In this document: in pieces, positions 1,512 to 52,742 of the stretch
Position numbering within the stretch: position 1 is the first letter of the stretch
Layout of the letters: each line of letters opens with the position of its first letter
Assembly: GCA_903857825.1 (NCBI GenBank)
Contig: CAIOGI010000006.1
Span: 25,132-89,131, forward strand
DNA length: 64,000 bases
Direction: 5' to 3'
DNA from: Candidatus Tayloriibacteriota bacterium
GTDB taxonomy: Bacteria > Patescibacteriota > Minisyncoccia > Phycocordibacterales > PALSA-1337
Program-made: the position numbers and the translations under genes
Notes under the pieces: model-generated
Told to the model about the DNA's origin: nothing
The model's database searches: none
The model's input: only the letters and a program-made list of their open reading frames with translations

Positions 1512-1679
1512 AAAATTGGACTCGTCGACTTGCGCTCGGAAGTTCCTCTTTTTTTCACAAGTTCAAAAAAGTAGGACTTCCTCCTTACAGGAGCTGTACA
1601 CCTTTCACTTTTTGATTACAAAATGTTCAAGGTCTTGCGAAAGCTCCGCTTTCTCACACCGTGCCGAGTCTCAATTTTG
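1512..1679. repeat. Palindromic intergenic repeat element, copy A (extended variant, about 168 bp)
   Basis: Starts AAAATTGGACTCGTCGACTTGCGCTCGGA and ends CACCGTGCCGAGTCTCAATTTT, the same termini as copies at 4690, 29332, 52129 and 52647. It has an internal GGAAGTTCCTC-T7...A6-GTAGGACTTCC hairpin and sits directly 3' of prfB. Confidence 0.8.
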
Positions 1680-1683
1680 TTTT

Positions 1684-2565
1684 CTATAACATTCTTTCCC
1701 CTTCTATAAACTCATCGATATGCCCTTCCAAAACCTTTTCTATTTGTGAAGTTTCAATATTTGTCCTATGATCCTTTACCATTTTGTAAGGATGCATAAC
1801 ATAAGAGCGAATCTGATTCCCCCATTCAATAGAAGTTGTCTTACTGATATACAGTCCCTTTTCCTTGGCTATTCTTTCATCCTCTCTTAATTTAAATAGC
1901 TTTCCACGCAGAATATCCATTGCTTTTTCTTTGTTTTGAGCTTGTGATCTCTCCGAGGTAACATGTACTGAAAGCCCAGTCTCTTTGTGTACAATCCTTA
2001 CAGCTGTTTCTCTTTTGTTCACATTTTGGCCACCAGGTCCGCCTGACTTTGCTATAGAAATCTCAATATCTTTTTCAGGAAGATCCATATCTGCACTATT
2101 TGTTTTTTCAAATTTTGGTATTACTTCGACCATTGAAAAAGAAGTGTGTCGAAGTTGTTTAGCATTAAAAGGTGAAATACGCACAAGACGATGTACACCT
2201 GACTCATTCTTCAGATCTCCATATACATTTTTTCCGCTTATCTCAATAGTTATATTTCTGAAACCACCATGATCATTTTCGTTTGAATGTACGAGCTCCA
2301 TTCCCCAACCTTTTTTTTCTGAATATTTTCTATACATTCTATAAAGAATTGCTGAGAAATCCTCTGAGTCGTCACCTCCCGCTCCAGAAAATATAGTCAA
2401 GATTGCATTACCTTTATCAAACTTTCCAACACCTTCCAGTGAATTTTTTAAATCTGCTATTTCTTTTATCACTGCCTGCGCTTTGTTCTTATCAGCCCAA
2501 AAGTCAGTGCTTTGCATAGACATTTCCAATTCGTCAATCTTTTTCTGAATTTCCTCTTTTTGCAT
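1684..2565 (-). CDS. prfB: Peptide chain release factor 2 (short form)
   Basis: GGQ motif (SGGPGGQNVNKRETAVR) and the RF2-specific SPF tripeptide (RISPFNAKQLRHTSF). The N-terminal domain is much shorter than in E. coli RF2. Confidence 0.85.
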   Translation of the reverse strand: MQKEEIQKKIDELEMSMQSTDFWADKNKAQAVIKEIADLKNSLEGVGKFDKGNAILTIFSGAGGDDSEDFSAILYRMYRKYSEKKGWGMELVHSNENDHGGFRNITIEISGKNVYGDLKNESGVHRLVRISPFNAKQLRHTSFSMVEVIPKFEKTNSADMDLPEKDIEISIAKSGGPGGQNVNKRETAVRIVHKETGLSVHVTSERSQAQNKEKAMDILRGKLFKLREDERIAKEKGLYISKTTSIEWGNQIRSYVMHPYKMVKDHRTNIETSQIEKVLEGHIDEFIEGERML

Positions 2566-2763
2566 TAGTTTAGTGTATAAGAAAAAAGGGCAAAAGAAAA
2601 GCCGAGAGGGTGAACTACCTTCACATTAAGATGGGGATGAATCTGTATTTTGAAGTGTTAGAGACGCAACACAACAACTACATCCATTCACGGGCTCAAG
2701 AGCCTAACCAGCCCCAAACTTACCTCTCGACTATTCATCTATCATATCATGTATTCATTCCTG

Positions 2764-2834
2764 AGCCAAATGTGAGAATCGGACTCACATTCCCGCTTTA
2801 CGAAAGCGGTGTTCTACCATTGAACTAATTTGGC
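2764..2834 (-). tRNA. tRNA-Thr (anticodon CGT), 71 nt, no encoded CCA
   Basis: Hand fold of the minus strand gives acceptor GCCAAAT/ATTTGGC (7 bp), D arm GTTC-AATGGTA-GAAC, anticodon stem CCGCT/AGCGG with loop TTCGTAA and T arm GTGAG-TCCGATT-CTCAC. The listed + ORF 2610..2828 overlaps it and is spurious. Confidence 0.85.
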
Positions 2835-3101
2835 AAAAGGTGCCACTGAAATCCGAGACAAGTACACCTCGTTATAGTTACGGGCACTCACTCCGGAGAC
2901 ATGGTATGTTTGGCCCATGCCAGAGTTACTTATGTCTCACAGCCTAGGTATTGTAACCAATTATGCCGAAAGACTTCAGTGGCTTTTTTATATTAACATT
3001 TTATATTCAATTTGCCATTAATCTTTTTACATCTCACCTCCCTGTCACCTCCCTAGCCAAAACTTCATTTTTCTGATACAGTAAAAAACACAAACACTAG
3101 T

Positions 3102-4640
3102 ATGACAAAGGTAATTAAGGACAATTCAGCTAAATTAATTAAACGACCCCCAGTTGTAGTTATTATGGGTCATATTGACCATGGTAAGTCAACACTTCTA
3201 GATTATATACGAAAAGCAAATATTGTTGACGGTGAAGCTGGAGGTATCACCCAACATCTCGGCGCATACGAAGTAAATCACAAAACCAGCGAAGGAAAAG
3301 AAGGTAGAATAACTTTTCTTGACACACCAGGCCACGAAGCCTTCTGCAGTATAAGAGAGCGAGGTGCTCAAGTTGCTGATGTTGCCATACTCGTTGTCTC
3401 TGCCGAGGATGGAGTGAAGCCACAGACTCTTGAAGCATTAAAATGCATTTTGCTAGAAAAAATTCCATATGTAGTAGCAATAAATAAAATTGATAAAGCC
3501 GGAGCAGATATAGAAAAAACAAAGCAGAGCCTTGCAGAGAATGAGGTATATGTTGAAGGTTATGGTGGAGATATTCCTGTATGTGCAATTTCTGCTTTAA
3601 ATGGTGAAGGAATCGCAAATTTATTGGATATAGTCCTACTAGTCACTGATATGCTAGATCTAAAAGCAGATACGAATGCTAAAGCAGAGGGTTCTATAAT
3701 AGAAGCAAAACTCGACAGCAAAAAAGGAATTTCAGCAACATTACTGATTAAAAATGGAACTTTAGAATCAGGTCAGTTCGTTGTTGCAGGAGATTCTCTA
3801 TCCCCAGTTAGAATATTCGAAGACTATCAAGGTAAAGCTATAAAAAAAGCTAGCTTTTCAAGTCCAGTGAAAGTTATTGGTTTTAATAAAATACCAATAG
3901 TTGGAAGTAGATTTGTCACCTGTCTTAATAAAAAAGAGGCTGAAGAAACTGCAAAGAACTTTACAGAAACACACAAAGCAAAAGCTAGCGTGAATAGCTC
4001 ATATACCAGAAGAGATGAAAACGACACAACTGTAATTATCCCAATTATCATTAAAGCTGATGTTGTGGGAAGTCTCGAAGGCATAAAGCATGAATTAGTA
4101 AAGATAAAAAATGAAAAAGTAAAGATAAAAATAGTTTCAGAAAGTATTGGTAATATAAATGAAAATGATGTAAAGACTGTTCAGGGCGATCCAAATATTA
4201 TAATAGTAAGTTTCAATACAAGAATAGACTCAAAAGCTCAAGGGACAATAGAAAGGTCAAATATTAAAATAAAATCCTTCGACATAATATACAATCTAGT
4301 TCAATTCTTAAAAGACGAAGTTACTTCAAAAATTCCAAAAGAATATATTGATGAAATATCAGGAACTGCCAAAATTTTAGCCATTTTCAACAAAAGTAAA
4401 GACAAACAAATACTAGGTGGAAAAGTACAAATTGGCACACTCAATATAGGTTCTGAAGTAAAAATACTTCGTCGAGATATGGAAATAGGCAGAGGAAGGA
4501 TAAAAGAGCTTCAATTACAAAAAGTTAAGGCAACTGAGGTAAATGAGGGCTATGAATTTGGTTGTATGATAGAGTCAAAGATCGAGATCGCTCTCGGTGA
4601 CAAGGTGCAGGGATTTGTCACTGTGGAGAAGAAAGTGTAA
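3102..4640 (+). CDS. infB: Translation initiation factor IF-2 (short form lacking a long N-terminal region)
   Basis: G domain motifs VVIMGHIDHGKSTLLD, DTPGHEAF and NKIDK; rbfA is directly downstream. Confidence 0.9.
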   Translation: MTKVIKDNSAKLIKRPPVVVIMGHIDHGKSTLLDYIRKANIVDGEAGGITQHLGAYEVNHKTSEGKEGRITFLDTPGHEAFCSIRERGAQVADVAILVVSAEDGVKPQTLEALKCILLEKIPYVVAINKIDKAGADIEKTKQSLAENEVYVEGYGGDIPVCAISALNGEGIANLLDIVLLVTDMLDLKADTNAKAEGSIIEAKLDSKKGISATLLIKNGTLESGQFVVAGDSLSPVRIFEDYQGKAIKKASFSSPVKVIGFNKIPIVGSRFVTCLNKKEAEETAKNFTETHKAKASVNSSYTRRDENDTTVIIPIIIKADVVGSLEGIKHELVKIKNEKVKIKIVSESIGNINENDVKTVQGDPNIIIVSFNTRIDSKAQGTIERSNIKIKSFDIIYNLVQFLKDEVTSKIPKEYIDEISGTAKILAIFNKSKDKQILGGKVQIGTLNIGSEVKILRRDMEIGRGRIKELQLQKVKATEVNEGYEFGCMIESKIEIALGDKVQGFVTVEKKV

Positions 4641-4689
4641 TATGAGTAATAAGAAAATTGGACTTGTCGAGAAATTGTATTGAGTAAAC

Positions 4690-4781
4690 AAAATTGAGAC
4701 TCGACGCGGTGAGGAAGTCTTTTATTTTAGCTCTGCTACAAATAAAAGAGCTTCCGAGCGCAAGCAAGCGAGTCCAATTTT
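4690..4781. repeat. Palindromic intergenic repeat element, copy B (reverse orientation)
   Basis: AAAATTGAGACTCGACGCGGTGAGGAAGTCTTTTATTTTAGCTCTGCTACAAATAAAAGAGCTTCCGAGCGCAAGCAAGCGAGTCCAATTTT is the reverse complement of the copy C/D consensus, with compensatory changes in the central stem. A partial half-copy lies at 4654..4677. Confidence 0.8.
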
Positions 4782-4796
4782 GTGAGATAAAATAAT

Positions 4797-5129
4797 ATGT
4801 CATCATCAAGAGAACAAAAATTAAAAGATATAATAAAAGAAGCAGCAGCTGAGTTCCTTCAGCGTGAATCAAATCACATTTCCCTATTAACAGTAACCGA
4901 TGTTTCTCTTTCAGATCGCTGCAATCAAGCCACAATATTCTTTACAGTCCTTCCTCAGGACAAGGAAAAAGGTGCATTAGATTTCGTAAAGAGAAAGCGT
5001 GCAGAATTTAGAGAATATTTTAAAAGCAAAGCAAGAATGCGTGCACTTCCCTTTTTTGATTTTGAAATTGATAATGGAGAGAAGAATCGTCAAAGAATAG
5101 ACGAAATAGCTAGAAATGTTATAGAATAG
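4797..5129 (+). CDS. rbfA: Ribosome-binding factor A
   Basis: About 110 aa, directly after infB (a conserved gene order); LLTVTDVSLSDRCNQATIFFTVL resembles the RbfA core. Confidence 0.75.
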   Translation: MSSSREQKLKDIIKEAAAEFLQRESNHISLLTVTDVSLSDRCNQATIFFTVLPQDKEKGALDFVKRKRAEFREYFKSKARMRALPFFDFEIDNGEKNRQRIDEIARNVIE

Positions 5130-5137
5130 CAAGAGTC

Positions 5138-5211
5138 GGCGTAGTGGCGAAGTTGGTTAACGCAGCAGTTTGCAAAACTGCCATTCACCGGTTCGAGCCC
5201 GGTCTACGCCT
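5138..5211 (+). tRNA. tRNA-Cys (anticodon GCA), 74 nt, no encoded CCA
   Basis: Acceptor GGCGTAG/CTACGCC, anticodon stem GCAGT/ACTGC with loop TTGCAAA and T arm ACCGG-TTCGAGC-CCGGT. Confidence 0.85.
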
Positions 5212-5226
5212 CCCAAATTATTAATT

Positions 5227-5913
5227 ATGAAAAATCAAGATGACATTGATCCAAATGTCTTTTGGTATATTGTTGGATACATCGCAACTGATGGTTCACT
5301 GAGCAAAGATGGAAGGCATGTATCGATCACGTCAAAAGACCATGAACATTTAGAAAAAATCAAGAAAGAGCTTGGTATTACTTCTAAAATTACAAAAAAA
5401 TGTCGTGCCCGAGGAAAAGAAAAAATATATTCGGTAATACAGATAGGTGGCATATCAAATTATCGTTTCCTTAATTCTATTGGTATGTATTCCAGAAAGA
5501 CATGGAATATGGGTCCAATCAAGATTGACGAAAAGTTATTTGGTGATTTTCTAAGAGGTGTTATAGATGGTGATGGATGTATTTATTCTTGGAAGAATAA
5601 GAGCAATAATCATAAACAATGGTCTTTGAGAATTTCTGGAACAGCACCAAAGTTTATTGAATGGTTATTTGAGCACATACAGACAACTTTTATGGTACAA
5701 GGTAGATTACATATTGACAAAAGAAATAATCGATCAGATACATACATAATTAAATTTGGTAAATTAGCCACTCAACGTATATTGAGAGACATTTATTATG
5801 AAGATTGTTTCTGTTTAGATAGAAAATTAGTTAAAGCGAATGAGTGCTTGCAAGATGAAGCAAAGATGATAAAGTATGGTGGAGTAATATGCTCGGGTGG
5901 CGAAACTGGTTAG
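5227..5913 (+). CDS. LAGLIDADG-family homing endonuclease (two-motif, monomeric type)
   Basis: Two LAGLIDADG motifs: FWYIVGYIATDGSLS and LRGVIDGDGCIY. The listed ORF start 5170 lies inside tRNA-Cys, so the start is more likely MKNQDD at 5227. The 3' end overlaps tRNA-Leu by about 23 nt. Confidence 0.75.
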   Translation: MKNQDDIDPNVFWYIVGYIATDGSLSKDGRHVSITSKDHEHLEKIKKELGITSKITKKCRARGKEKIYSVIQIGGISNYRFLNSIGMYSRKTWNMGPIKIDEKLFGDFLRGVIDGDGCIYSWKNKSNNHKQWSLRISGTAPKFIEWLFEHIQTTFMVQGRLHIDKRNNRSDTYIIKFGKLATQRILRDIYYEDCFCLDRKLVKANECLQDEAKMIKYGGVICSGGETG

Positions 5914-5975
5914 ACGCAAAAGACTTAAAATCTTTCGACCGAAAGGTTATGCGGGTTCGACTCCCGCCCCGAGCA
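5891..5975 (+). tRNA. tRNA-Leu (anticodon TAA), 85 nt with long variable arm
   Basis: Acceptor GCTCGGG/CCCGAGC, anticodon stem AAAGA/TCTTT with loop CTTAAAA, variable arm CGACCGAAAGGTTAT and T arm GCGGG-TTCGACT-CCCGC. Confidence 0.85.
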
Positions 5976-6121
5976 CTGATCTGTGCCCCATAAAAGTAAC
6001 CCCTATTTACCAGTTTTTTGCTGTTTTCTGCTTGTTTGTATTTGTTTTACATAGTAAAATATAGTGTAGTATTGATTTTGTATTTTAGATTCAATTTTAT
6101 TATTAGTTAATTTTATATACA

Positions 6122-8926
6122 ATGGAACATTTACCATTACTAGCAGAAAAGAAAAGATATGAGGAATTATCAGGTGCTGAAAAACTAAAAGTTTTACAAA
6201 AACTTTACCTTGAGCAAACGGGTAAAAAACTTATGAATGTTTCTAGCGCTAATGAACCTGAATATATGAATCCCGTAGGAAAAGCTCCGGGAAGGTATGT
6301 AAGAGTAAGACCATATGAAGGAAGAGAGGCATTAGTTATGTTACCATCTGAGAATGTAGATGAGATAGATGGAACTCCGCCAGAAAACCAAACTTCTGAA
6401 ACAACAGCAGAAGAACCTTCGACAGATACTGTTGCTAAAGATACTATACAAACGCAAGGAATACAGACACCCACTTCACCGTTTTCTGAAATAAACGAAC
6501 CTAAACCGGACGTTCAAAATGAACCCATACCAACAACCGCGACTGGAAAAGAAAATTTGCCATATCAAATGTTTGATAATATTGGTCTTGGCTTTAATTA
6601 CGGCAAAGCTGGTGAAGGTCAGCAAATGGCAGATGAAGACAAACTGGAACTAGCTAATACAAGATGGCAAGTAAAACCTGATATTGCTTTAACAGAATCA
6701 GGTTCGGCTGACAAAATAGAAGATCCAAAAGAAAAAGCAGAAACCAAAGAACAATCTCCAAATACAGAAAAATTTCTATCTCCAGAAGATATTGCTAAAG
6801 AAATAGATGCATTTGAAATCAAAGAAGGAAATTCTATTGTCTTTCACTATGCGGACAAAGACAGTAAAGTAAAAATTATAAGGATAGATGGTGGAAGCAT
6901 TATATATAAAAGCTTTCTTAATCGCAAAGGCACTAATGAAGAAACGGCGAGTAATGAAAAGTCCTATGATAAAGACGGGGAAAGTTTTAAACGCGAACTC
7001 AAAGATCTTTTAGTTAATAAAGATGAGAAAATTATAAGCATTACCATAACAACTGCTGATAATTCAGAAAAAATAGATGATGGGCAGACTACAGAAGAGG
7101 TGTCACCTAAAGAATTTACTGCGGAAAAACTTCATATTGAAGATATTGCTAATGGATCAAAAAGAGTAAAAATTGAAGGTATGAATAGTGCTGGTGTAAC
7201 TACAACTTACACTCTACACAAAGGCACTCGTGCTGGAAAACCATTTTACTCAATTAAGACAGTAAATAGAGTAGCTTCTGGTTCAATACACCATGATAGT
7301 ACAGATGAACTTTTGAAATATCTTAATAACGACAAACTTACAAATGTTGTGATTAGTAGTGAAGAAGTAGTAATGCTGGAACCTGAAAAAGAAAAAGAAG
7401 TGCCTGATGAACCAGGACCTACTCCATCATTGGCAGGAGACCAACCCGTTAAACCTACACCGCAAGCTCCAAGTGGTACAGTTCCATTATCATCATTGTT
7501 TCCTGGAGGGGCAGTAGACTTTGGAACATTCAAACAAGCAACAGCAAAGACCGAACCTGCTACATCATTACCAGGAGACCGACCCGTTAAACCTACACCG
7601 CAAGCTCCAAGTGGTACAGTTACATTATCATCAATGTTTCCTGGAGGAGGAGTAGTGGACTTTAAGAAAGAAGAAGGACTATACGAAAAAGCAACACTTG
7701 CAGATATCAGACTAAGCTCAAAAAATAAAAGCTTTTTTGGTAAAATGTCAAAATTTGCACAGTCAATAGCGTTAAAACTCTATGAAGGCTCGGGAGTTAG
7801 TGACTTAGTTGCTAAATTTAGTATATGGAATGAGCAAGGCGGGATAAACGCTTTTGAAAAAATAGCAGTAACAAGAAAGGAAGAGATTGATGAAATTGAA
7901 CTTTTAAGCAAAGCTTTAGACCAGTCAAGGATAGCTATAAACAGTTCGATAGCATCACTTAAAGCAAAAGGATTATCAGGCGCTGAATCTCTTCAGATTG
8001 AACTTAGAAATATAGATAATGAAAAGAAAAAAATAGAAACAAGAAAAGATAGAATTAAAACTAAATTTGATAAAGCATACAATACAGCAAAAGTTTATTC
8101 AAATGATCGTGATGCCATAGCAAATAGAGTCATTGATCGATACAATGAAAAACTAGCACCGATAGAAGAACACTTAGAAACTCTTCAGGAGCAAAGAGTA
8201 AAACTCGAGATTCTTACCGTAGCAAGTCAAGAAGAATATGCACTCAAGCAAGAAGAAATTGATAGTTTAGTAGCAGAAAGAAATAACGAGGTTGAAAGAT
8301 TAAAAAATGCATCTAAAATAGTGATAACTGGTGCCCTTAAGAGACTTGATGGGAACATCAATTCAATACGAGAAAGTATAAAACTAGGTAGAGAAAAGTT
8401 GGAGGAAGAAAAAGTTGAAATAAATCGTCAAATTGCCAAAGCTGAAGAAAGAGCAAATCCATACAGAACAAGGAGGAATGAATTTACAAGAATGAAATCC
8501 CCTCTTATTGATATAAATGTGCCACCGATTTCAATAGAAAAAGATAGCAGGAAATTAAATGATATAGGAATCAGAACGGGAGGTGTTGTTGATACTAGTT
8601 TGCAACCAGAAATAAGTGTGACGCCAGAAACTCCCCCTGATGTGAAAAGATATGGTAAAGAGTGGGTGTCTATATCTAGCCATATCGGAGGCTGGAACAA
8701 ATATATAGAAGGGATAAAAGACGCCAACATAAATAAAGACCTATTCAAAATAGATATTAAAGGGTTATATTTCAATCATCCCAGGATAACTGGTGATCAA
8801 CTAGTTAGACGTGAGGCATTCCTCAAAACTCTTCAGATTCATATGGAAGCAATAGCAAAAAAGAATAGGGGCAGCCTTACCACTGAGACGATAAAGAAGG
8901 TTATCGCCGATTTTCCTAAAAATTAA
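6122..8926 (+). CDS. Large hypothetical protein (934 aa) with an acidic, T/P/E-rich N-terminal half, an internal tandem repeat and a C-terminal coiled-coil region
   Basis: Long ORF. An approximately 85-bp direct DNA repeat at about 7426..7510 and 7561..7645 encodes ...GD(Q/R)PVKPTPQAPSGTV(P/T)LSS(L/M)FPGG.... Heptad-like K/E-rich segments follow. No recognisable catalytic motif. Confidence 0.5.
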   Translation: MEHLPLLAEKKRYEELSGAEKLKVLQKLYLEQTGKKLMNVSSANEPEYMNPVGKAPGRYVRVRPYEGREALVMLPSENVDEIDGTPPENQTSETTAEEPSTDTVAKDTIQTQGIQTPTSPFSEINEPKPDVQNEPIPTTATGKENLPYQMFDNIGLGFNYGKAGEGQQMADEDKLELANTRWQVKPDIALTESGSADKIEDPKEKAETKEQSPNTEKFLSPEDIAKEIDAFEIKEGNSIVFHYADKDSKVKIIRIDGGSIIYKSFLNRKGTNEETASNEKSYDKDGESFKRELKDLLVNKDEKIISITITTADNSEKIDDGQTTEEVSPKEFTAEKLHIEDIANGSKRVKIEGMNSAGVTTTYTLHKGTRAGKPFYSIKTVNRVASGSIHHDSTDELLKYLNNDKLTNVVISSEEVVMLEPEKEKEVPDEPGPTPSLAGDQPVKPTPQAPSGTVPLSSLFPGGAVDFGTFKQATAKTEPATSLPGDRPVKPTPQAPSGTVTLSSMFPGGGVVDFKKEEGLYEKATLADIRLSSKNKSFFGKMSKFAQSIALKLYEGSGVSDLVAKFSIWNEQGGINAFEKIAVTRKEEIDEIELLSKALDQSRIAINSSIASLKAKGLSGAESLQIELRNIDNEKKKIETRKDRIKTKFDKAYNTAKVYSNDRDAIANRVIDRYNEKLAPIEEHLETLQEQRVKLEILTVASQEEYALKQEEIDSLVAERNNEVERLKNASKIVITGALKRLDGNINSIRESIKLGREKLEEEKVEINRQIAKAEERANPYRTRRNEFTRMKSPLIDINVPPISIEKDSRKLNDIGIRTGGVVDTSLQPEISVTPETPPDVKRYGKEWVSISSHIGGWNKYIEGIKDANINKDLFKIDIKGLYFNHPRITGDQLVRREAFLKTLQIHMEAIAKKNRGSLTTETIKKVIADFPKN

Positions 8927-9346: not shown

Positions 9347-9494
9347 GGTAAGTGCCCATAGATGTTTTGGTAGACTTAGACCATATGTAGATCTTAGTTT
9401 GATAATATACAATTAAATAAGTATTGCGCCCATAGCTGTTCTGGTAGGCCCAGAGCATATGGACATCTTAGCTCGACAAGATACAATTAAATAA
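9347..9494 (+). pseudogene. Two tandem degenerate copies (about 74 bp each) of the tRNA-Lys 5' region: pseudo-tRNA fragments
   Basis: Unit 1 is GTGCCCATAGATGTTTTGGTAGACTTAGACCATATG...ACAATTAAATAA. Unit 2 is GTATTGCGCCCATAGCTGTTCTGGTAGGCCCAGAGCATATGG...ACAATTAAATAA. Both align to the genuine GCATTGCGCCCATAGCTCAGTTGGTAGAGCAG. Confidence 0.6.
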
Positions 9495-9499
9495 GCATT

Positions 9500-9572
9500 G
9501 CGCCCATAGCTCAGTTGGTAGAGCAGATCCCTCTTAAGGATAAGGTCGTAGGTTCGATCCCTACTGGGCGCA
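9500..9572 (+). tRNA. tRNA-Lys (anticodon CTT), 73 nt
   Basis: Acceptor GCGCCCA/TGGGCGC, D arm GCTC-AGTTGGTA-GAGC, anticodon loop CTCTTAA and T arm GTAGG-TTCGATC-CCTAC. The 3' 20 nt (TACTGGGCGCACAAGTGAGG) are repeated at 9631..9652. Confidence 0.8.
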
Positions 9573-9698
9573 CAAGTGAGGAAAAAGAGGTTTACCTCTT
9601 TCATTCCGAACGCAGTCGCCCATCACGAAGTACTGGGCGCACAAGTGAGGGTTGGAGAATTTATCTTCTTTGATCCAAGCTTAATAGAATAGAAACAT

Positions 9699-9780: not shown

Positions 9781-9789
9781 CAGAATAAT

Positions 9790-9818
9790 AAAAGACTGGA
9801 TAAATCCAGTCTTTTATT
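9790..9818 (+). terminator. Rho-independent terminator after the tRNA pair
   Basis: AAAAGACTGGA-TAAA-TCCAGTCTTTT followed by ATTATT: perfect 11-bp stem flanked by an A-tract and a T-tract. Confidence 0.7.
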
Positions 9819-9840
9819 ATTACTAGTATTTGCGATTAGG

Positions 9841-10948: not shown

Positions 10949-11248
10949 CTAAAATGTTGCAGTCTGTCCCAAACTACTAAATACAAACCGAACAATGCCA
11001 TAAGCTGAAATCATTATTGCCATACCTACCAAACCCCATAATATGTGCGTTTGCCCGGTTTTTCTTCTTTCTGGATCTTCCCCACCCATAATATATCCGA
11101 TTATACCCCAGATGAACATAAAGGTTGCCAGTACGAACATGAACTGTACTATTGGAGAAATAATATTATCTACTATTTTTAGAATTATCAAATCTGTAGC
11201 TGCTGAGCTATTATTCGCCGCTTCTGCAACTTTAGAGAAGATATTCAT
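10949..11248 (-). CDS. Small two-helix membrane protein, VirB2/TrbC-like pilin paralog 1
   Basis: Core FMFIWGIIGYIMGGEDPERRKTGQTHILWGLVGMAIMISAYGIV: two hydrophobic helices split by a short charged loop, shared with the four ORFs upstream. Confidence 0.55.
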   Translation of the reverse strand: MNIFSKVAEAANNSSAATDLIILKIVDNIISPIVQFMFVLATFMFIWGIIGYIMGGEDPERRKTGQTHILWGLVGMAIMISAYGIVRFVFSSLGQTATF

Positions 11249-11278
11249 TAATATAGCAAAATATTAACTGTATTTGGA

Positions 11279-11659
11279 TTATCTAACAGTAGTTGGATCG
11301 ATAACTTTTGGAAATTGGTTTTCTGTTGGAGTATTATTGCCTGTACCAAATGAATTCTTTAGTATTGCGACTAGACCCCAGATAGAAAGGATTACGAATA
11401 GACCAACAACACCGTATAGAATACGCAACCCCCCCTCTTTTCTTTTATCTTCTGAACCAGCAATAAGATATACAAAAACATTTACAACAATCCATATAAC
11501 TGCTAGAGATATAACAATAGTTATAAATGAGTTTCCAAGAGAAGTAAATTTACCAAAGATACTGTCTTGACCAGTACCATCAATTTTAGTTATAGTATTT
11601 TGAGCAAACACTGCCACCGGAGCTAATAATGAAACCGCAATTGCAATTATTTTTTTCAT
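11279..11659 (-). CDS. Small secreted two-helix membrane protein, VirB2/TrbC-like pilin paralog 2
   Basis: Signal peptide MKKIIAIAVSLLAPVAVFA; core IVVNVFVYLIAGSEDKRKEGGLRILYGVVGLFVILSIWGLV. Confidence 0.6.
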   Translation of the reverse strand: MKKIIAIAVSLLAPVAVFAQNTITKIDGTGQDSIFGKFTSLGNSFITIVISLAVIWIVVNVFVYLIAGSEDKRKEGGLRILYGVVGLFVILSIWGLVAILKNSFGTGNNTPTENQFPKVIDPTTVR

Positions 11660-11748
11660 ATTTTTTATTTAATAATAATACTTTTATTTACTAATTGTAA
11701 CAACATATAGGACAAGAAGCAATCTATGAATTGTGGAAAAGAGATAAG

Positions 11749-12165
11749 CTATATCCAGTCTTCGTCTTCGTTGTCATCTGGTGGTGTAGTCTGATTAAAA
11801 TTCCCAAACGGTATTGTGGGTGGTGTATTCTGCAATTTAAATGTATTAGTCAATATGAATACCAAGCCCCATATAGATAGTATTACAAAGAAGCCGATAA
11901 GGCTGTACATAACATATAGACCAGCTTCTTTTTTTGCTGCAGGATCATCACTTCCATATATGAAATACTTGAATACATTCCATACGAACATCAGAACTGC
12001 AAAGCTAATAATCAAATATATAGCATATTGAAAATAACCTGTAATTAATTGCATTAGACTTCTGAGATCAGTCACAGAACTTGGGGTTATCGCTGCTACA
12101 GCAGAAGCAAATGCAGGTGCTGATAACAATATCACTGCCATAATTGTTTTTTTCATATTATTCAT
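11749..12165 (-). CDS. Small secreted two-helix membrane protein, VirB2/TrbC-like pilin paralog 3
   Basis: Signal peptide MKKTIMAVILLSAPAFASA; core LMFVWNVFKYFIYGSDDPAAKKEAGLYVMYSLIGFFVILSIWGLVFIL. Confidence 0.6.
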   Translation of the reverse strand: MNNMKKTIMAVILLSAPAFASAVAAITPSSVTDLRSLMQLITGYFQYAIYLIISFAVLMFVWNVFKYFIYGSDDPAAKKEAGLYVMYSLIGFFVILSIWGLVFILTNTFKLQNTPPTIPFGNFNQTTPPDDNEDEDWI

Positions 12166-12174
12166 ATTATATTA

Positions 12175-12543
12175 TTAATTTCGATTAAACACACTACTGT
12201 CCACAACTCCAGCCGAGGATAGAGTATTTTTTAATATTTCTACGATGACCCTGGCACTTATTAAAATGGCCAATCCCACAATTATATACAGTAGCCACAT
12301 CTTTGCTTCTTTTAATTTATCCGTATTACCTTGAGCCATAACAAATTGGAATCCAACATATATTAAGGCGAGTATAGAGAATGCAACACCGATATACATT
12401 GCTATATCAACCGCTAGGTAAATAACCCCCTGAACACTCTCAACCTTTAGTGGATTTGTTAATTTATTACTTTCAACAGCAAAACTAACAGAAAATACTG
12501 AAAGAAAAGTGATGAAAATGAATGATGTTATTATTTTTTTCAT
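12175..12543 (-). CDS. Small secreted two-helix membrane protein, VirB2/TrbC-like pilin paralog 4
   Basis: Signal peptide MKKIITSFIFITFLSVFSVSFA; core ALIYVGFQFVMAQGNTDKLKEAKMWLLYIIVGLAILI. Confidence 0.6.
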   Translation of the reverse strand: MKKIITSFIFITFLSVFSVSFAVESNKLTNPLKVESVQGVIYLAVDIAMYIGVAFSILALIYVGFQFVMAQGNTDKLKEAKMWLLYIIVGLAILISARVIVEILKNTLSSAGVVDSSVFNRN

Positions 12544-12549
12544 ATTATT

Positions 12550-13017
12550 TTATTGACCCACTAGTGTACCTGTAACAGACAGGAATTCAGGGGTAAGTAT
12601 CCATTTTAATAATGTAGTGACGATAAACCACGCCATGAGAGCCCAAACAAAACCTTTTACTGCACTGATCATGATTTTCTTCGCTTTGTCGATATTACCC
12701 TTTGAACCAGTCATGTATAGAAAACCAGCATAAGCGAGAAGTCCCACCATAACTGGAATTGATATACCAAATGCCCAATTTATCAAATACTTCACCATTG
12801 AGACGAGATTTGCGAAATTACAAACAACCTGACGTTTACTCTCTCCAGGAGTCACCACTCCATCACATTGAACCCAACCACTATAATCAAGGGTTGTTGA
12901 GGGTGCAGGTACTGCTGGTGGAGGTGAATTGACAGAATAAACCAAAGGTGACAATGAATAACTACCTAATATAAGAAGGACGAGTGCAGCAAACTTTAAT
13001 ATAAATCTTTTATTCAT
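12550..13017 (-). CDS. Small secreted two-helix membrane protein, VirB2/TrbC-like pilin paralog 5 (Pro-rich, two Cys in the N-terminal part)
   Basis: Signal peptide; SPPPAVPAPSTT...C...C; core GLLAYAGFLYMTGSKGNIDKAKKIMISAVKGFVWALMAWFIV. Overlaps the upstream SBP gene by 8 nt. Confidence 0.55.
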   Translation of the reverse strand: MNKRFILKFAALVLLILGSYSLSPLVYSVNSPPPAVPAPSTTLDYSGWVQCDGVVTPGESKRQVVCNFANLVSMVKYLINWAFGISIPVMVGLLAYAGFLYMTGSKGNIDKAKKIMISAVKGFVWALMAWFIVTTLLKWILTPEFLSVTGTLVGQ

Positions 13018-18114: not shown

Positions 18115-18540
18115 ATGAATGAAAAATATTTTAAAGATTTTGATAAATGGAATAATAAATCTAAAGAGATTGAATCAAAAGAGTTCGAGAACTTCTTTTA
18201 TGCTCGAGAAATCTGGTGGTGTGCTTTAGGCGTGAATATTGGCTCAGAACAAGATGGCAAAAATGATTCATTTGAAAGACCTGTATTGATTGTTCGACGA
18301 ATAAGTCGGGACTCGTGCATAATTTTACCATTCACAAGTAAAATTGTTGATAGTGACTATCGCGTAACTACAGAGAGCACCGGTATTCAAGCACAAGTCG
18401 TATTATCTCAAATAAAGACAATTAGCAGTAAGCGTCTATTAAGGAAAATAGGAAAAATTAAAACAATAATATTTTATGAGATACTAATAAAATTATCATT
18501 TATAATACTTGGTGTTTTGAAAGACGAAACCCCACCATAA
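18115..18540 (+). CDS. PemK/MazF-family endoribonuclease toxin (type II toxin-antitoxin toxin)
   Basis: EIWWCALGVNIGSEQDGKNDSFERPVLIVRRISRDSCIILPFTSKIVD...VLSQIKTISSKRLLRKIGKI matches the PemK/MazF pattern. No antitoxin-sized ORF is evident immediately upstream. Confidence 0.75.
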   Translation: MNEKYFKDFDKWNNKSKEIESKEFENFFYAREIWWCALGVNIGSEQDGKNDSFERPVLIVRRISRDSCIILPFTSKIVDSDYRVTTESTGIQAQVVLSQIKTISSKRLLRKIGKIKTIIFYEILIKLSFIILGVLKDETPP

Positions 18541-22774: not shown

Positions 22775-22806
22775 GAAAACACCCACGAAAGTGGGGTTTT
22801 CTTTTG
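22775..22806 (+). terminator. Rho-independent terminator after the S1 gene
   Basis: CCCAC-GAAA-GTGGG followed by GTTTTCTTTTGC. Confidence 0.65.
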
Positions 22807-22898
22807 CTTGACTGTAGTTAAATTTTTGCTAGTATATAGTAATGAAAGAAACTTTCGGCCGTGGTTTATACACCACACTTGGCGGAGGGTTTTTTTCT

Positions 22899-23327
22899 TT
22901 ATATAGACTTTATTGGAAATATTGATATGAGACTTTTTTCTCTTCTTTTAACGCTTTCCTTTATTTGTACACAAAATAGACTTTTATCTAATGTTCTCCC
23001 GTAAAACCGATGTAATATCTCTGATGATTTATTTGGGTTATTTTTTGAATCTTGCCTAATATTTGAATTTTTAATTAAATCTAGGCCGCAAGTATAGTAT
23101 TTCAATCTCCTTGCCCTATCCTTAGGATTCTTTTGCCTGATATGATCCCAGAAGTAATCAAGAAACACCTTCTCATTATTAAAATGTCTTGACCTAACAT
23201 ATGGTCTACGCCTAGTTTTAGATGCAATTTGTTTGTAGATAGAAATTGCCTGAGGGTACACCTCATTATAGCTAGTGCCTGATAGTTTTTTTATCTTAGT
23301 ATTATATATTTTAGAATCCATCCCCAC
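22899..23327 (-). CDS. Hypothetical basic protein (142 aa)
   Basis: K/R-rich ORF; no recognisable motif. Confidence 0.35.
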   Translation of the reverse strand: MGMDSKIYNTKIKKLSGTSYNEVYPQAISIYKQIASKTRRRPYVRSRHFNNEKVFLDYFWDHIRQKNPKDRARRLKYYTCGLDLIKNSNIRQDSKNNPNKSSEILHRFYGRTLDKSLFCVQIKESVKRREKSLISIFPIKSI

Positions 23328-23415
23328 ACCCTAACAAAAAGTTATTAAGAAGTTATAAAGAAAAGTGCTGTTTTTAGTAGTTCAAATACAGAAAATATAA
23401 AAAGTAAATAGTAAA

Positions 23416-29295: not shown

Positions 29296-29331
29296 GTAAA
29301 TTATTAGCAGAATGAGTTCATGTCACTTAGT

Positions 29332-29423
29332 AAAATTGGACTCGTCGACTTGCGCTCGAGAGTACTTTTATTTGTAGCAGAGCTAAAATAAAAGTCTCTC
29401 TCACCGTGCCGAGTCTCAATTTT
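29332..29423. repeat. Palindromic intergenic repeat element, copy C
   Basis: AAAATTGGACTCGTCGACTTGCGCTCGAGAGTACTTTTATTTGTAGCAGAGCTAAAATAAAAGTCTCTCTCACCGTGCCGAGTCTCAATTTT, between the convergent gene ends at 29295 and 29440. Confidence 0.85.
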
Positions 29424-29439
29424 ACAAAGTAATATAAAC

Positions 29440-36104: not shown

Positions 36105-36200
36105 ATGGGTTGACTACAAGAAGGGGCTTGATATGATATGAGTACAGTCGTCCTTAATTGGACTGCCGAGATTCCCCGCCATTTGGCGGGGTTTCGCTTT
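36105..36200 (+). ncRNA. Candidate small transcript: promoter-like TTGACT-16nt-TATGAT followed about 60 nt later by an intrinsic terminator
   Basis: TTGACT at 36105, TATGAT about 16 nt downstream, and hairpin CCCCGCC-ATTT-GGCGGGG followed by TTTCGCTTTTTTT at 36170..36200. This could equally be just the bidirectional terminator for the KilA-N gene. Confidence 0.25.
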
Positions 36201-37049: not shown

Positions 37050-37188
37050 ATTTTGTTTAATTATCTTAATAATTTGCATACTTTAACAAAAAGTTCTTAA
37101 GAAGTTTTAAAGAAATTATTAAGAAATGATAAAGATTTGAGTTAGAAAATGAAATACGAGAACTGTAAATATTTTTTAGTATAAAAAT

Positions 37189-37692
37189 ATGATAGATTTT
37201 ACATCAATGATTATTGGATTGCATAAAAAATATATTAAAGGCAGTGAGAAAAATGCTATTGTTCAAATAGTTCAAGCGTTTATGTGTAATTTAACTGCGG
37301 CCGTCGTAAAAGGTATATCGTGTCCTAGTAATAAGGTTTATATCAGTACTCGCGTATTAAAACATGTATATGACAAGAGGCCTGCAGAAGAATTTGATTT
37401 TCTGATCGAAAACCTACATTTGATTATTAAGTTCCCAGATTTAATTTTTAAAAATAAAAGTGGCAAGCGTGGTGAATTTTGCTTTGTAAAAGAAATTAAA
37501 GGCAAAAAATACTTATGCTCAATAGAAATTATAAACAAAGTGGACATAGTCCAATGTGAAATAGCTACCTTTTTCCGTGTAGATAGTGATTATTTAAAAA
37601 ATTACGAACTCTTATGGGAGTGGAAGGGCGGCGGCCTTCATCGTAGTGCGTTCGATGCTGATATTACTCAGCCTAATAGCACCCTGCAGTAG
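37189..37692 (+). CDS. Hypothetical protein (167 aa), possibly a phage-associated nuclease-like domain
   Basis: ORF divergent from the KilA-N gene. There are no secure motifs, and the PBECR-like guess is weak. Confidence 0.35.
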   Translation: MIDFTSMIIGLHKKYIKGSEKNAIVQIVQAFMCNLTAAVVKGISCPSNKVYISTRVLKHVYDKRPAEEFDFLIENLHLIIKFPDLIFKNKSGKRGEFCFVKEIKGKKYLCSIEIINKVDIVQCEIATFFRVDSDYLKNYELLWEWKGGGLHRSAFDADITQPNSTLQ

Positions 37693-49805: not shown

Positions 49806-49809
49806 AAAA

Positions 49810-50391: not shown

Positions 50392-50426
50392 AATATAAAT
50401 TATAGCACTAATATGGTCAATGTAAT

Positions 50427-51398: not shown

Positions 51399-52068
51399 CT
51401 ATTAATTTGTGATTTCCAGAAAGAAGAACTTTCGGCACTCTGTATTTCTTTCCTTTATATTCTAACACTTCTGGCCGAGTATATACATCTGGTGATGCGA
51501 TACGACTTTCCTCAAGTGAACAATGGTCACCCAAGACACCTTCTATTTGACGTGATATCGAATCTATCAAAATCATTGCGGGAAGCTCCCCACCAGTTAA
51601 TACAAATGGCCCAACTGATATTTCATCCATTTTAAATGCGGACTTAACCCGAGCATCTATGCCCTCGTATCGTCCGCAAATAAACACGATATCTGTATAC
51701 TTTATCGCAACATCTTTCGCATAAGTAGTGTCAAACTGTTTTCCAGATGGTGTAAACCAAATAACTTTTACTTTTTTCTGAGGAGTTTTCTTGCCTAGCT
51801 TTTTGCTGGACAGGCCCACAGCTTTTGCAATAGCCTTTATCACAGGCAAAGCTTCTATAACCATGCCAGGTCCTCCGCCATAAGGTTTGTCATCCACTCT
51901 TCTATCAGCATAACTTTGTTCCCCACCTTTTTTAGAAGAAACTGTGAAATCGCGAGGATTGTAGAACTTCACCTTTATTTTTTTATCCTCTTGGGCACGT
52001 TTAAGAATAGACTCGGATAGATATGAGTCGAAGGACTGTGGAAATAGTGAAATGATGTGATATGTCAT
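51373..52068 (-). CDS. trmD: tRNA (guanine37-N1)-methyltransferase
   Basis: MTYHIISLFP...YGGGPGMVIEALPV...IFICGRYEGIDAR...VLTGGELPAMILIDSISR; SPOUT-fold TrmD. Confidence 0.9.
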   Translation of the reverse strand: MTYHIISLFPQSFDSYLSESILKRAQEDKKIKVKFYNPRDFTVSSKKGGEQSYADRRVDDKPYGGGPGMVIEALPVIKAIAKAVGLSSKKLGKKTPQKKVKVIWFTPSGKQFDTTYAKDVAIKYTDIVFICGRYEGIDARVKSAFKMDEISVGPFVLTGGELPAMILIDSISRQIEGVLGDHCSLEESRIASPDVYTRPEVLEYKGKKYRVPKVLLSGNHKLIDEWRKNKK

Positions 52069-52082
52069 GTGTTTTTATAAAC

Positions 52083-52118
52083 AAAAAAGCGTGGTATTAC
52101 ATTACCACACTTTTTTAT
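52083..52118 (-). terminator. A-tract/hairpin/T-tract bidirectional terminator
   Basis: AAAAAAGC-GTGGTATTACATTACCAC-ACTTTTTTAT. Confidence 0.5.
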
Positions 52119-52128
52119 AGCTGTACAC

Positions 52129-52221
52129 AAAATTGGACTCGTCGACTTGCGCTCGGAGGCTCCTCTTTTTTTCGTAAACTCAAAAAAGTAGGACCTCCTC
52201 ACCGTGCCGAGTCTCAATTTT
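52129..52221. repeat. Palindromic intergenic repeat element, copy D
   Basis: AAAATTGGACTCGTCGACTTGCGCTCGGAGGCTCCTCTTTTTTTCGTAAACTCAAAAAAGTAGGACCTCCTCACCGTGCCGAGTCTCAATTTT, directly 3' of the KH-domain gene. Confidence 0.85.
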
Positions 52222-52222
52222 G

Positions 52223-52546
52223 TTAAATCTTCAAATCTGCCATTGCTTCATCTACTGTCTTTGAAGCCTTCTCAACCATTGGTACTGACTTTAGTCCTCC
52301 TTCTGGCTCATTGATCTTCAAATTCACTCTTGAGTTATTCTTCATTCCAACAACTCTTAGAAGAGTTCTGATGGCCTTTGCAGTGTTTCCTGCTCGACCG
52401 ATAACCTTACCCATATCTGCTGCGTTTACCTCTAATGTCATAAGCACACCCATCTCATCTACTGTTCTCGCTATCTTAACGTCATTTGGATTCTCTACCA
52501 ATGACTTAACTACAAATTCCAAAAACTGCTGGTCCGTATTATTCAT
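52223..52546 (-). CDS. KH-domain RNA-binding protein (YlqC/UPF0109-like)
   Basis: GKVIGRAGNTAKAIRTLLRV is the KH GxxG loop region. Sits between rpsP and trmD in the conserved neighbourhood. Confidence 0.75.
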   Translation of the reverse strand: MNNTDQQFLEFVVKSLVENPNDVKIARTVDEMGVLMTLEVNAADMGKVIGRAGNTAKAIRTLLRVVGMKNNSRVNLKINEPEGGLKSVPMVEKASKTVDEAMADLKI

Positions 52547-52646
52547 ATATATTTTCTTATTATCTTATAATCAAACAAATACAGTACATATTGTACCTTG
52601 CTAATGACAAGAGTCAAAATTAGTTTTACACAGTTTGGCATAAAGT

Positions 52647-52742
52647 AAAATGGACTCGCCTGCTTGCGCTCGGAAGCACTTTATTTTTTTACGCTTTCGC
52701 TAGAAAAAATAAAGTCTCCCTCACCGCGTCGAGTCTCATTTT
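52647..52742. repeat. Palindromic intergenic repeat element, copy E (diverged)
   Basis: AAAATGGACTCGCCTGCTTGCGCTCGGAAGCACTTTATTTTTTACGCTTTCGCTAGAAAAAATAAAGTCTCCCTCACCGCGTCGAGTCTCATTTT, directly 3' of rpsP. Confidence 0.8.

Follow-up and report, generated by a model that had tools for sequence, protein, structure and literature searches.

The DNA analysed here, a 64-kb stretch that we refer to as the window, carries five copies (A to E) of a palindromic repeat in the spacers around prfB, infB, rbfA, a dsbA-like gene, a helicase gene, a KH-protein gene, rpsP and trmD. The copies and the features beside them are as follows.

1510..1680, minus strand: copy A, 171 nt; outer subtype beta, core type 2
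4638..4644, plus strand: left direct repeat TAATATG (7 nt), bounding the entire B insertion and including the infB stop codon
4654..4671, minus strand: solo terminus AAAATTGGACTTGTCGAG, a 17/18 match to the repeat terminus, in the opposite orientation to B
4688..4783, plus strand: copy B, 96 nt; outer subtype alpha, core type 1
4793..4799, plus strand: right direct repeat TAATATG, including the rbfA start codon
29330..29425, minus strand: copy C, 96 nt; outer subtype beta, core type 1
52083..52116, minus strand: canonical terminator-like hairpin, not part of the element (A6, stem GTGTGGTA/TACCACGC, T6), between copy D and the trmD start
52127..52223, minus strand: copy D, 97 nt; outer subtype beta, core type 2
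52590..52617, minus strand: promoter-like TTGACT-16-TACAAT of the KH gene, outside the element and downstream of copy E
52645..52744, minus strand: copy E, 100 nt; outer subtype alpha, core type 3

The first-pass annotation had every copy abutting a stop codon. This is exact for copy A, which lies 3 nt past the prfB stop (TAG, 1684–1686), and for copies D and E, which overlap by 1 nt the stop codons of the KH-protein gene (TAA, 52223–52225) and of rpsP (TAG, 52744–52746), but not for the other two. Copy C is the sole hairpin between two convergent genes, 34 nt from the stop of the dsbA-like gene (29293–29295) and 14 nt from that of a UvrD/PD-(D/E)XK helicase gene (29440–29442), while copy B, between infB (stop 4638–4640) and rbfA (ATG 4797), is 47 nt from the infB stop. 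The end of B and the rbfA ATG are separated by 13 nt with no promoter-like site in between, and a tRNA-Cys lies 8 nt past rbfA. The start of ftsE is 56 nt further on from copy A, and that gap too has no promoter-like site. The solo terminus lies 13 nt from the infB stop and looks like what is left of an older copy at B's site. It is one of two partial copies proposed at first pass; the other, at 36140–36160, shares only AATTGGACT with the repeat and was found by neither the pattern search nor the covariance model, so that we treat it as chance. Both the hairpin at 52083–52116 (with compensatory changes) and the promoter-like GGTACAATAT of the KH gene are kept in the relatives L111, L112, L114 and L139.

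Running a covariance model built from the repeat family over the window returned exactly five copies, at the places where they had first been noticed, and no further match even with the filters off. Four of them score 93–106 bits (E 1e-22 to 1e-26); copy A scores only 35 bits because of its nested insert, a structured segment of 74 nt at ~1583–1656 that matches the extra insertion of ~70 bp already reported there. The exact 13-mer and 14-mer of the terminus occur four times each, far above expectation. The copies are real, but the length of ~92 bp originally given to them is too short: the palindrome takes in another 2 nt at either end (AC..GT in A, B and D; GT..AC in C and E), which sets the unit limits listed above and gives units of 96–171 nt, the usual size being 96–100 nt and the 171 nt including the nested insert of A. 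No ORF is common to the copies, since run lengths and cores vary. Repeat density is low, at ~5 per 80 kb.

The copies are built as nested imperfect palindromes: an outer stem of 13–15 bp and asymmetric internal loops, both conserved, enclose a fast-evolving inner hairpin. The outer stem, (NN)AAAAT(T)G[A]GACTCG / CGAGTCCA(A)TTTT(NN), contains the terminal inverted repeats AAAAT(T)G[A]GACTCG found at both ends (13/14), plus two co-varying pairs, in agreement with the initial description of the termini as imperfect inverted repeats of each other. The internal loops come in two co-varying subtypes, alpha (ACGCGG..GCAAGCAAG) and beta (GCACGG..GCAAGTCGA), within which lie a GGRAG/CUYCC stem and then the T-run / loop / A-run hairpin. 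This central hairpin with its two runs on opposite arms was correctly recognised at first pass; its 5′ arm carries the T-run and its 3′ arm the A-run. The T-run comes first on both strands, the reverse of terminator order, and the order A-run / stem / T-run occurs only in the outer stem. The core classes originally proposed (B with C, A with D, E alone) were likewise recovered. The inverted doublet and its spacer fold as one long hairpin, whose arms are the conserved left and right segments, neither of which pairs with itself; GTAG is absent.

Folding gives z-scores of −4 to −5.4 (RNA) and −5 to −7.4 (DNA) for all copies. Pairing holds in 97.2% of pair cells over 12 distinct copies; shuffles give 85%, and sliding the partners gives 37–49%. 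Both sides have changed in 16 of the 36 pairs, confirming the compensatory substitutions noted earlier between copies, and the observed covariation was reached by 0/500 shuffles. Bulges and internal loops are conserved and the stems co-vary, outermost pairs included; one co-varying pair lies inside the terminal repeat itself (AAAACTG/CAGTTTT in L129). One strand is consistently more stable, by 1.3–6.3 kcal/mol as RNA and 2–4 kcal/mol as DNA, and has a conserved G-T wobble where the opposite strand has an A-C mismatch.

The family also occurs outside the window, in further Saccharibacteria MAGs, and the same termini and loops recur in L014 and L096 (CAYWKB010000001.1), L047/L107, L108, L111 and L129 (two copies). 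The comparison draws on n=11 independent copies only; the exact-pattern scans of big collections were so strict that they reveal neither copy numbers nor how far the family truly extends. The Rfam and blastn look-ups suggested at first pass matched no known family. With Rfam 15, the window gave tRNAs only and no other family at gathering threshold, and the elements themselves, at E ≤ 10, gave at best plant and animal miRNA models of 13–22 bits, far under their thresholds. Neither blastn against phage and plasmid sequences nor a search of viral contigs gave a match to the repeat.

Spacer lengths at orthologous sites reveal how the copies were acquired. The rpsP-KH spacer, 197 nt in the window, is 162 nt in L111, where an orthologous copy of E has identical junctions and a type-1 core, and 80–110 nt in L112, L113, L114 and L139, where E is absent. 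The KH-trmD spacer is 154 nt in the window and 66–83 nt in L111, L112, L114 and L139, where the site of D is empty. Between infB and rbfA, 156 nt in the window compares with 1–24 nt across relatives (1 nt in L130/L131, 6 nt in L132), and L129 has a copy at this site with a different core. Between prfB and ftsE the window has 230 nt and L130 only 36 nt, with no element. L129 has a private copy between ftsX and pyrG. Relatives with 76–88% identical TrmD or InfB have sites A, B, D and E empty, or only some of them filled. Since these relatives lack the repeat at orthologous sites, it was gained as an insertion in short spacers right behind stop codons, translation-gene operons included. In some cases the repeat has taken the place of a gene's final codons, and the stop then falls at or inside the A-rich terminus of the repeat: in L112 the rpsP stop is within ACTGTGTAA, a sequence that in the window comes after copy E, and in L096 and L047/L107 the upstream ORF stops at a TAA within the repeat terminus.

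Target duplication is not consistent across sites. It is seen at B alone, as the 7-nt TAATATG that occurs once only in the empty site of L130 (AAATAATATGTCATC); no direct repeats were seen at A, C, D or E or in the copies of other genomes. The empty sites of L139 hold small T-run/A-run palindromes exactly at the element position, which could be virgin targets or deletion remnants, so that some of the events may have been losses and not gains. Pfam shows no transposase, integrase or HUH enzyme among the 40 window ORFs or in the domain listings for ~250 kb of related loci, nor do these stretches contain a cognate autonomous IS with the same inverted repeats.

The copies are, furthermore, mosaic between outer part and core. 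Copies at orthologous sites have outer parts that are 0.93–0.98 identical and cores that are only 0.46–0.53 identical, while copies at non-orthologous sites in different species have cores that are 0.97–1.00 identical. Some cores are 97–100% identical between species whose neutral DNA is saturated.

We conclude that this is probably a non-coding, non-autonomous, lineage-specific mobile repeat of ~96 bp, belonging to a clade of Candidatus Saccharibacteria. The presence of the family in other genomes, the empty orthologous sites and the strong covariation all support the mobile MITE/REP-like element that the first-pass annotation had seen in it; a purely local duplication or a lack of covariation had been named beforehand as telling against that view, and we found neither.

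A second part of the original proposal, that the copies are bidirectional intrinsic terminators, is not supported by the genomic context. Taken further, it would make them spreading modules like SPRITE of Streptococcus pneumoniae, kept for ending upstream transcription. Terminator-like repeats have a precedent in SPRITE (PMC10969869), and the outer stem is indeed in terminator order (A-run, 6–7-bp stem containing G+C, 4–6 T), with at least 5/8 bases past it being T on both strands, much like the native bidirectional terminator after tRNA-Leu (9785–9820, AAAAGACTGGAT..ATCCAGTCTTTT). Every copy is downstream of a stop codon, C provides the only hairpin between two convergent genes, and E is followed by a promoter-like site for the next gene. 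However, copy B splits infB from rbfA, with no promoter-like site between it and the rbfA ATG and with the tRNA-Cys further downstream, and next after copy D comes a canonical terminator hairpin, which relatives without D have conserved too. Relatives without E have no terminator at that place, so that no ancestral function is being replaced. Judged by position, copies A, B and D are not at the ends of transcription units (B in infB-rbfA, D ahead of a terminator, A 56 nt before ftsE), and across the family the elements face either way with respect to transcription. The place of the 'loop' in the outer stem is taken by a structured rod of 66 nt, beyond usual terminator geometry, the inner hairpin has its T-run before and its A-run after, and a terminator consensus scan of the window flagged none of the copies. 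Given that the outer stem and T-run resemble native terminators such as that at 9785–9820, weak or occasional termination may occur, for example at C; context argues against efficient termination, and we think it unlikely that the elements are maintained as terminators.

Two further explanations turn on the conserved structure. If the repeat were a strand-specific structured RNA (a cis-regulatory motif, small RNA, ribozyme or protein-binding RNA), the copies would reflect function and not mobility. Conserved loop nucleotides with co-varying flanking stems are the usual signature of functional RNA, and the five window copies share one orientation relative to the nearest upstream gene; yet 10 independent insertions are mixed in orientation, A to E lying one way and those in L014, L096 and L047 and the second L129 copy the other. 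The repeat also has no promoter of its own, because copies begin 0–3 nt past stop codons, its neighbour genes are functionally unrelated, its presence varies between closely related species, and even at E ≤ 10 it has no Rfam match. We regard such a role as extremely improbable. The other explanation accepts mobility but makes the element a REPIN- or attC-like variant, whose mobilisation would depend on a structure-specific enzyme (HUH/Y1 such as RAYT, or a tyrosine recombinase) working on a folded DNA single strand and not on a DDE transposase acting on double-stranded inverted repeats. The conserved bulges and internal loops, the covariation that extends to the outermost pairs and to AAAACTG/CAGTTTT in L129, the consistently more stable strand with its G-T wobble in place of an A-C mismatch, and the irregular target duplication are all in its favour, as is the arrangement of two conserved inverted units and a variable spacer in ~100 nt, as in REPINs (PMC3116915). 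Against it, neither conserved unit forms a palindromic REP hairpin by itself or bears a GTAG head, RAYT, IS200-like and integrase genes are absent from both the window and the related loci, and the 7-nt repeat at B better fits a staggered double-strand cut. We are doubtful of it.

For the mobile repeat that we favour, we envisage a trans-acting enzyme, encoded elsewhere, that would recognise the conserved termini and subterminal loops, possibly on a folded single strand, and move or copy the element. Selection in compact genomes may tolerate it directly behind stop codons, where it would be co-transcribed with its neighbours in either orientation and fold to a ~36-bp rod. Such a rod would be at most a weak terminator and more probably an RNA 3′-end or processing hairpin (an RNase III substrate or exonuclease block); an RNase III is encoded in the genome (Pfam listing). 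All of these RNA-level effects we infer. A bolder scheme, which we consider quite improbable, is that the repeat is moved as a folded single strand by a not-yet-recognised Patescibacteria enzyme, homes to stop-proximal sites or small T-run/A-run palindromes, brings its own stop codon, and swaps its inner hairpin between copies and even species. Were this folded-strand, core-swapping reading true, ultra-small genomes would harbour in the repeat a structured mobile element of a new kind, or else an RNA-processing module that has been domesticated.

Several known systems bear comparison. Integron attC sites lie directly 3′ of ORFs and are imperfectly palindromic, their ends and unpaired bases conserved and their centre variable; the repeat has all of these features. 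However, its termini do not fit the RYYYAAC/GTTRRRY boxes, there is no integrase and no cassette array, and its neighbours are housekeeping genes (prfB, infB, rbfA, rpsP, trmD) in conserved synteny. Rickettsia palindromic elements (RPE) are, like the repeat, palindromic and spread in a reduced genome, and are likewise able to land in coding sequence; they are kept in frame and translated inside proteins, whereas the repeat sits at the extreme 3′ end of genes, its A-rich ends supplying or abutting the stop codon. SPRITE is a dispersed repeat with a structure mimicking an intrinsic terminator (PMC10969869), but in the present repeat the terminator-like part is the outer stem only, around the 66-nt rod, the context of B and D speaks against efficient termination, and both taxon and sequence are different.

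The Correia elements (CREE) of Neisseria and similar MITEs (ERIC, RUP, BOX) resemble the repeat in being small and non-coding, of 100–200 bp with terminal inverted repeats, and in lying beside or between genes, co-transcribed (as predicted for ours) and with nested insertions; CREE-type elements fold into long hairpins cleavable by RNase III (PMC10969869). The repeat differs in having no sequence similarity in any collection searched, no TA duplication, no demonstrated IHF site or promoter, and asymmetric internal loops that are conserved across genera. Small size (below ~500 bp), lack of coding capacity, terminal inverted repeats and dispersal with presence/absence among relatives are nonetheless what is expected of a prokaryotic MITE. 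REPINs are REP doublets that form hairpins and are mobilised by RAYT transposases (Bertels and Rainey 2011, PMC3116915). The conserved segments of the repeat are not self-palindromic REP units (20–40-nt palindromes with a GTAG-like head), no RAYT accompanies them in the window or related loci, the host has a reduced Saccharibacteria genome, and the sparse copies hug stop codons. Like REPINs, though, they are extragenic units of ~100 nt with two conserved inverted segments and a less conserved spacer, the inverted doublet being predicted to form a long hairpin in ssDNA or mRNA, and they are non-autonomous and dispersed, with occasional singlets (compare the solo terminus at 4654–4671). Our best reading is that the family is a new one of an already familiar type, a small mobile MITE/REPIN-like repeat that is probably co-transcribed as a long hairpin.

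Repeat finding followed by alignment assigns five copies of a nested-hairpin repeat of about 96 bp to a single family, at the positions proposed by the first-pass annotation.

Copy A, 1510-1680, between prfB and ftsE
Copy B, 4688-4783, between infB and rbfA
Solo terminus, 4654-4671, a single element end near copy B
Copy C, 29330-29425, between convergent dsbA-like and helicase genes
Copy D, 52127-52223, between the KH gene and trmD
Copy E, 52645-52744, between rpsP and the KH gene

The palindrome described for the family is present, though it extends 2 nt further on each side than had been stated. Of the two partial copies also proposed, the solo terminus near copy B is genuine, while the one at 36140-36160 is supported neither by pattern search nor by the covariance model. 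The window contains four exact occurrences each of the terminal 13-mer and 14-mer, with a further variant in copy E; in shuffled sequence, even with two mismatches permitted, the matches number 2.6 (13-mer) and 0.9 (14-mer). A covariance model trained on ten copies recovers five elements and no others from the 64 kb, whether its speed filters are on or off, scoring B, C, D and E at 93-106 bits and A at only 35 bits because of its insert; the next-best match is an ordinary AT-rich terminator (E ∼0.1). No further copies were found in ∼15 kb of additional sequence past both window ends in the same species. The analysis as a whole draws on 11 independent element copies.

On its more stable strand, the 5' arm of the element reads 5'-NN AAAAT(T)G A GACTCG / loop / GGTGAGG RAG.. 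T-run; a loop follows, and the 3' arm is A-run ..CUYCC GAGCGCAAG / loop / CGAGTCC A(A)TTTT NN-3'. RNA and DNA folding both predict a single rod-like hairpin of ∼36 pairs for every copy and both strands, with z-scores of -4 to -5.4 (RNA) and -5 to -7.4 (DNA), and the strands differ in stability, consistently in favour of one of them, by 1.3-6.3 kcal/mol (RNA) or 2-4 kcal/mol (DNA). Every copy, whatever the genome, keeps the same irregularities, namely a G-U wobble, a bulged A and three small internal loops of asymmetric shape; the stems co-vary. Across 12 distinct copies, standard pairs fill 97.2% of pair cells (shuffling lowers this to 85%, sliding the partners to 37-49%), and 16 of the 36 pairs change on both sides; the observed covariation was equalled by none of 500 shuffles, which bears out the compensatory substitutions claimed earlier. 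Such changes reach the outermost pairs (AC/GT, GT/AC, AG/CT, GC/GC) and the lengths of the runs (A4/T4, A5/T5, A6/T6), and at L129, a relative's infB-rbfA/prfB-ftsE region, one pair within the terminal repeat is altered (AAAACTG/CAGTTTT). In the inner hairpin the T-run forms the 5' arm and the A-run the 3' arm on both strands, which is not the order of a terminator; A-run, stem and T-run follow one another only in the outer stem. A small conserved ORF within the element was ruled out, because run indels change the frame from copy to copy, and attC-like boxes are absent.

Comparison with relatives shows that the element was acquired at new sites by insertion.

Intergenic spacers in the window and in relatives (L111-L114 and L139, rpsP-KH-trmD loci; L129-L132, infB-rbfA/prfB-ftsE regions)
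rpsP-KH, window: 197 nt, contains copy E
rpsP-KH, L111: 162 nt, copy present, junctions identical to the window's
rpsP-KH, L112, L113, L114 and L139: 80-110 nt, without a copy
KH-trmD, window: 154 nt, contains copy D
KH-trmD, L111, L112, L114 and L139: 66-83 nt, without a copy
infB-rbfA, window: 156 nt, contains the solo terminus and copy B
infB-rbfA, L130 and L131: 1 nt; L132: 6 nt
infB-rbfA, L129: 24 nt between called genes, the called rbfA ORF entering an element located after the infB stop
prfB-ftsE: window, 230 nt (copy A); L130, 36 nt

A further copy, between ftsX and pyrG, is private to L129; the spacer there is 23 nt in L130 and of unrelated sequence in the window's species. In the latter (L134 11660-11925, just past the left end of the window) the ftsX-pyrG spacer is 266 nt long, against 23 nt in close relatives, and is G+C-rich and structured-looking but unlike the repeat family. 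At the sites of E and D, L139 carries small palindromes (7121-7140, TAGT-ATTTTAAGAAAAT-AC; 7558-7570, TAA-TTTTAAAA-GTGAC) with the polarity of the element cores, T-run then A-run; these could be virgin targets or deletion scars.

Copies A, D and E lie no more than 3 nt from a stop codon. The rpsP frame of L112 continues to ACTGTGTAA, a sequence found downstream of the element in the window and L111, where the frame instead ends at a TAG on the element boundary. At L096 and L047/L107, element-bearing loci of other genomes, a TAA within the terminus (G-TAA-AAATGG) ends the upstream ORF. Insertion can thus reach into a gene's final codons, with the A-rich end of the element providing the stop. 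In 7 of the 11 independent copies (∼1.5 expected, P ∼2e-4) the A-run has a TAG no more than 7 nt away on one or both sides, only two of these TAGs being a stop codon in use. The insertion of copy B is flanked by a 7-nt direct repeat, TAATATG, that is single-copy in the empty site and re-creates the infB stop and the rbfA start; no comparable flanking repeat was seen at the other sites, and TA, TWA or YTAR target duplications fail to fit both flanks.

The copies are mosaic. Mean pairwise identity is 88% in the outer, conserved parts and 54% in the cores. Where two copies occupy orthologous sites (E and L111; B and the L129 infB-site copy), their outer parts are 0.93-0.98 identical but their cores only 0.46-0.53, while copies at different sites in different species (B and L111; A and the L129 infB-site copy) have cores 0.97-1.00 identical. 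Either gene conversion, with the conserved segments as its route between copies, or recurrent insertion at shared hot spots would account for this pattern; from the solo terminus beside B it is clear that the site has seen more than one event. Internal loops of copy A and of the second L129 copy are interrupted by nested insertions that differ from each other, that of copy A being the extra insertion of about 70 bp already recognised, here measured at 74 nt (∼1583-1656). A 10-mer in this insert, GTGTACAGCT, recurs in the flank just downstream of copy D (52119-52128), and one in the ∼40-nt insert of the second L129 copy (∼4070-4110), CTTGTGGTAC, recurs in the downstream flank of copy A (∼1488-1497). 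Both resemble -10-region motifs (GGTAC..).

The window genome belongs to the Patescibacteria, has 36% G+C, and has 'uncultured Candidatus Saccharibacteria' MAGs as its closest named relatives. An exact-pattern scan of GTDB species genomes returned at least 106 stretches; true copies among the matches listed are L014 and L096, both on CAYWKB010000001.1, and L047, which together represent at least two species, the remaining ∼100 being chance matches in high-GC genomes. The exact two-ended pattern found at least two loci (L107 and L108) in metagenome contigs, both from groundwater. That pattern is too strict, missing the copies at L111 (one) and L129 (two), which differ at single conserved bases and came instead from fetched orthologous loci of a relative with 87-88% identical TrmD and InfB; the scans therefore understate the true range. 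The window's species occurs in many samples (36-58 index blocks of the collection), and its strains outside the window's own sample (L109, L110, L133-L135) have identical copies. Searching the full window in Rfam with gathering thresholds, and the elements alone at E≤10, returned nothing relevant; copy D has no blastn match in the phage and plasmid collections, and we found no published report of such repeats in Saccharibacteria or Patescibacteria. In viral contigs the left motif has 14 matches, all chance G+C-rich sequence with no family member by the covariance model, and the right motif has none. The element matches no described family by sequence or model.

The copies had been taken for bidirectional intrinsic terminators. 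The outer stem and T-run resemble native terminators here, such as the one after tRNA-Leu at 9785-9820, so that some termination is physically plausible, and copy C is the sole hairpin separating two convergent genes. The context of B, D and E nevertheless speaks against efficient termination. Copy B ends 13 nt ahead of rbfA, with no promoter-like site between them and a tRNA gene directly after rbfA, and infB and rbfA are adjacent or overlapping in relatives; in relatives without E the KH promoter comes directly after the rpsP stop; and downstream of D stands a canonical A6-stem-T6 hairpin that relatives without D have conserved. This hairpin (52083-52116, minus strand; A6, GTGTGGTA..TACCACGC, T6) lies 10-16 nt upstream of the trmD start codon, is kept with compensatory stem changes in L111, L112, L114 and L139, and could be a KH terminator or a trmD attenuator; no room is visible after it for a trmD promoter. 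A strand-specific functional RNA could be proposed from the uniform orientation of the window copies relative to the upstream gene (5/5), but orientation is reversed in L014, L096, L047 and the second L129 copy, which argues against such a role and against any universal orientation rule with respect to transcription.

What we observe is a structured palindromic repeat, conserved across genera and tolerated directly behind genes or in their last codons. The suggestion that it is a MITE/REP-like mobile element is upheld by sites empty in relatives, by copies gained at new sites and by the presence of the family in other genomes. Movement would depend on a trans-acting enzyme encoded outside the window; Pfam identifies no transposase inside it, and neither the window nor ∼250 kb of related loci yields a candidate mobilising enzyme. 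The conservation of bulges and loops, covariation in the stems, the asymmetry between strands and the absence of regular target duplications incline us towards a folded single strand as the form recognised, as in REPINs or attC, although the TAATATG repeat at B leans the other way.

Several other features of the window were recorded.

22800-22900 (plus) and 59130-59230 (minus): second repeat family, two copies of ∼100 nt, ∼80% identity
18044-18116, 37072-37144 and 23325-23363: common AT-rich segment of 40-73 nt (AACAAAAAGTTNTTAAGAAGTTNTAAAGAAATTATTAAG..)
9354-9501: tandem duplicate of a 74-nt unit, 82% identity, ending at the start of tRNA-Lys (9500-9573)
5170/5227-5913: LAGLIDADG homing-endonuclease ORF filling the gap between tRNA-Cys (5138-5213) and tRNA-Leu (5891-5976), its ends overlapping both
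10949-13017 (minus): five tandem paralogous T4SS_pilin-domain genes, syntenic in L129-L132 with varying gene number and sequence

In each copy of the second repeat family, TTGACTG is followed after ∼17 nt by TATATAGTAAT, next by a conserved hairpin (CCGTGGTT.ATACACCACA), then by a G-rich stretch and lastly by a T-run. This arrangement resembles a small transcription unit, and the family is a candidate small RNA gene, with no Rfam match when the window was searched at the gathering threshold. The AT-rich segment lies upstream of a MazF/PemK-like toxin gene (18115-18540) and a PBECR3 nuclease-domain gene (37189-37692), its third copy adjoining ORF 22899-23327, and may be a common promoter/operator of toxin-type genes. 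Each 74-nt unit terminates in promoter-like TTGATAATATACAAT.

The chief interest of the element lies in its host, a streamlined Saccharibacteria genome, and in its placement on stop codons within core operons. The genomes of Saccharibacteria, like those of other Patescibacteria, are very small and densely packed with genes, and are usually called poor in repeats and mobile DNA. A hairpin repeat that is actively spreading within core translation operons (prfB-ftsE, infB-rbfA, rpsP-KH-trmD) shows that genomes of this type can still accommodate selfish or regulatory repeats. The element can serve as a marker for strain typing and assembly breaks, and is a candidate for studying signals of mRNA processing and decay in hard-to-culture organisms, while its covariance model is usable for annotation and avoids mistaking the repeats for small RNA genes or terminators.

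If transcribed, the ∼36-bp rod would be a plausible RNase III substrate or block to 3' exonucleases, and RNase III is encoded nearby; such a role in transcript processing or decay would parallel that of Correia and REP elements (PMC10969869). Apart from a regular target duplication and a known parent IS, the element has the descriptive features of a bacterial MITE, and its architecture is like that of a REPIN, although it does not conform to the definition of a REP unit. With this likeness to MITEs and REPINs, and no match to a described family, we conclude that the element is a new family within a known kind of repeat.
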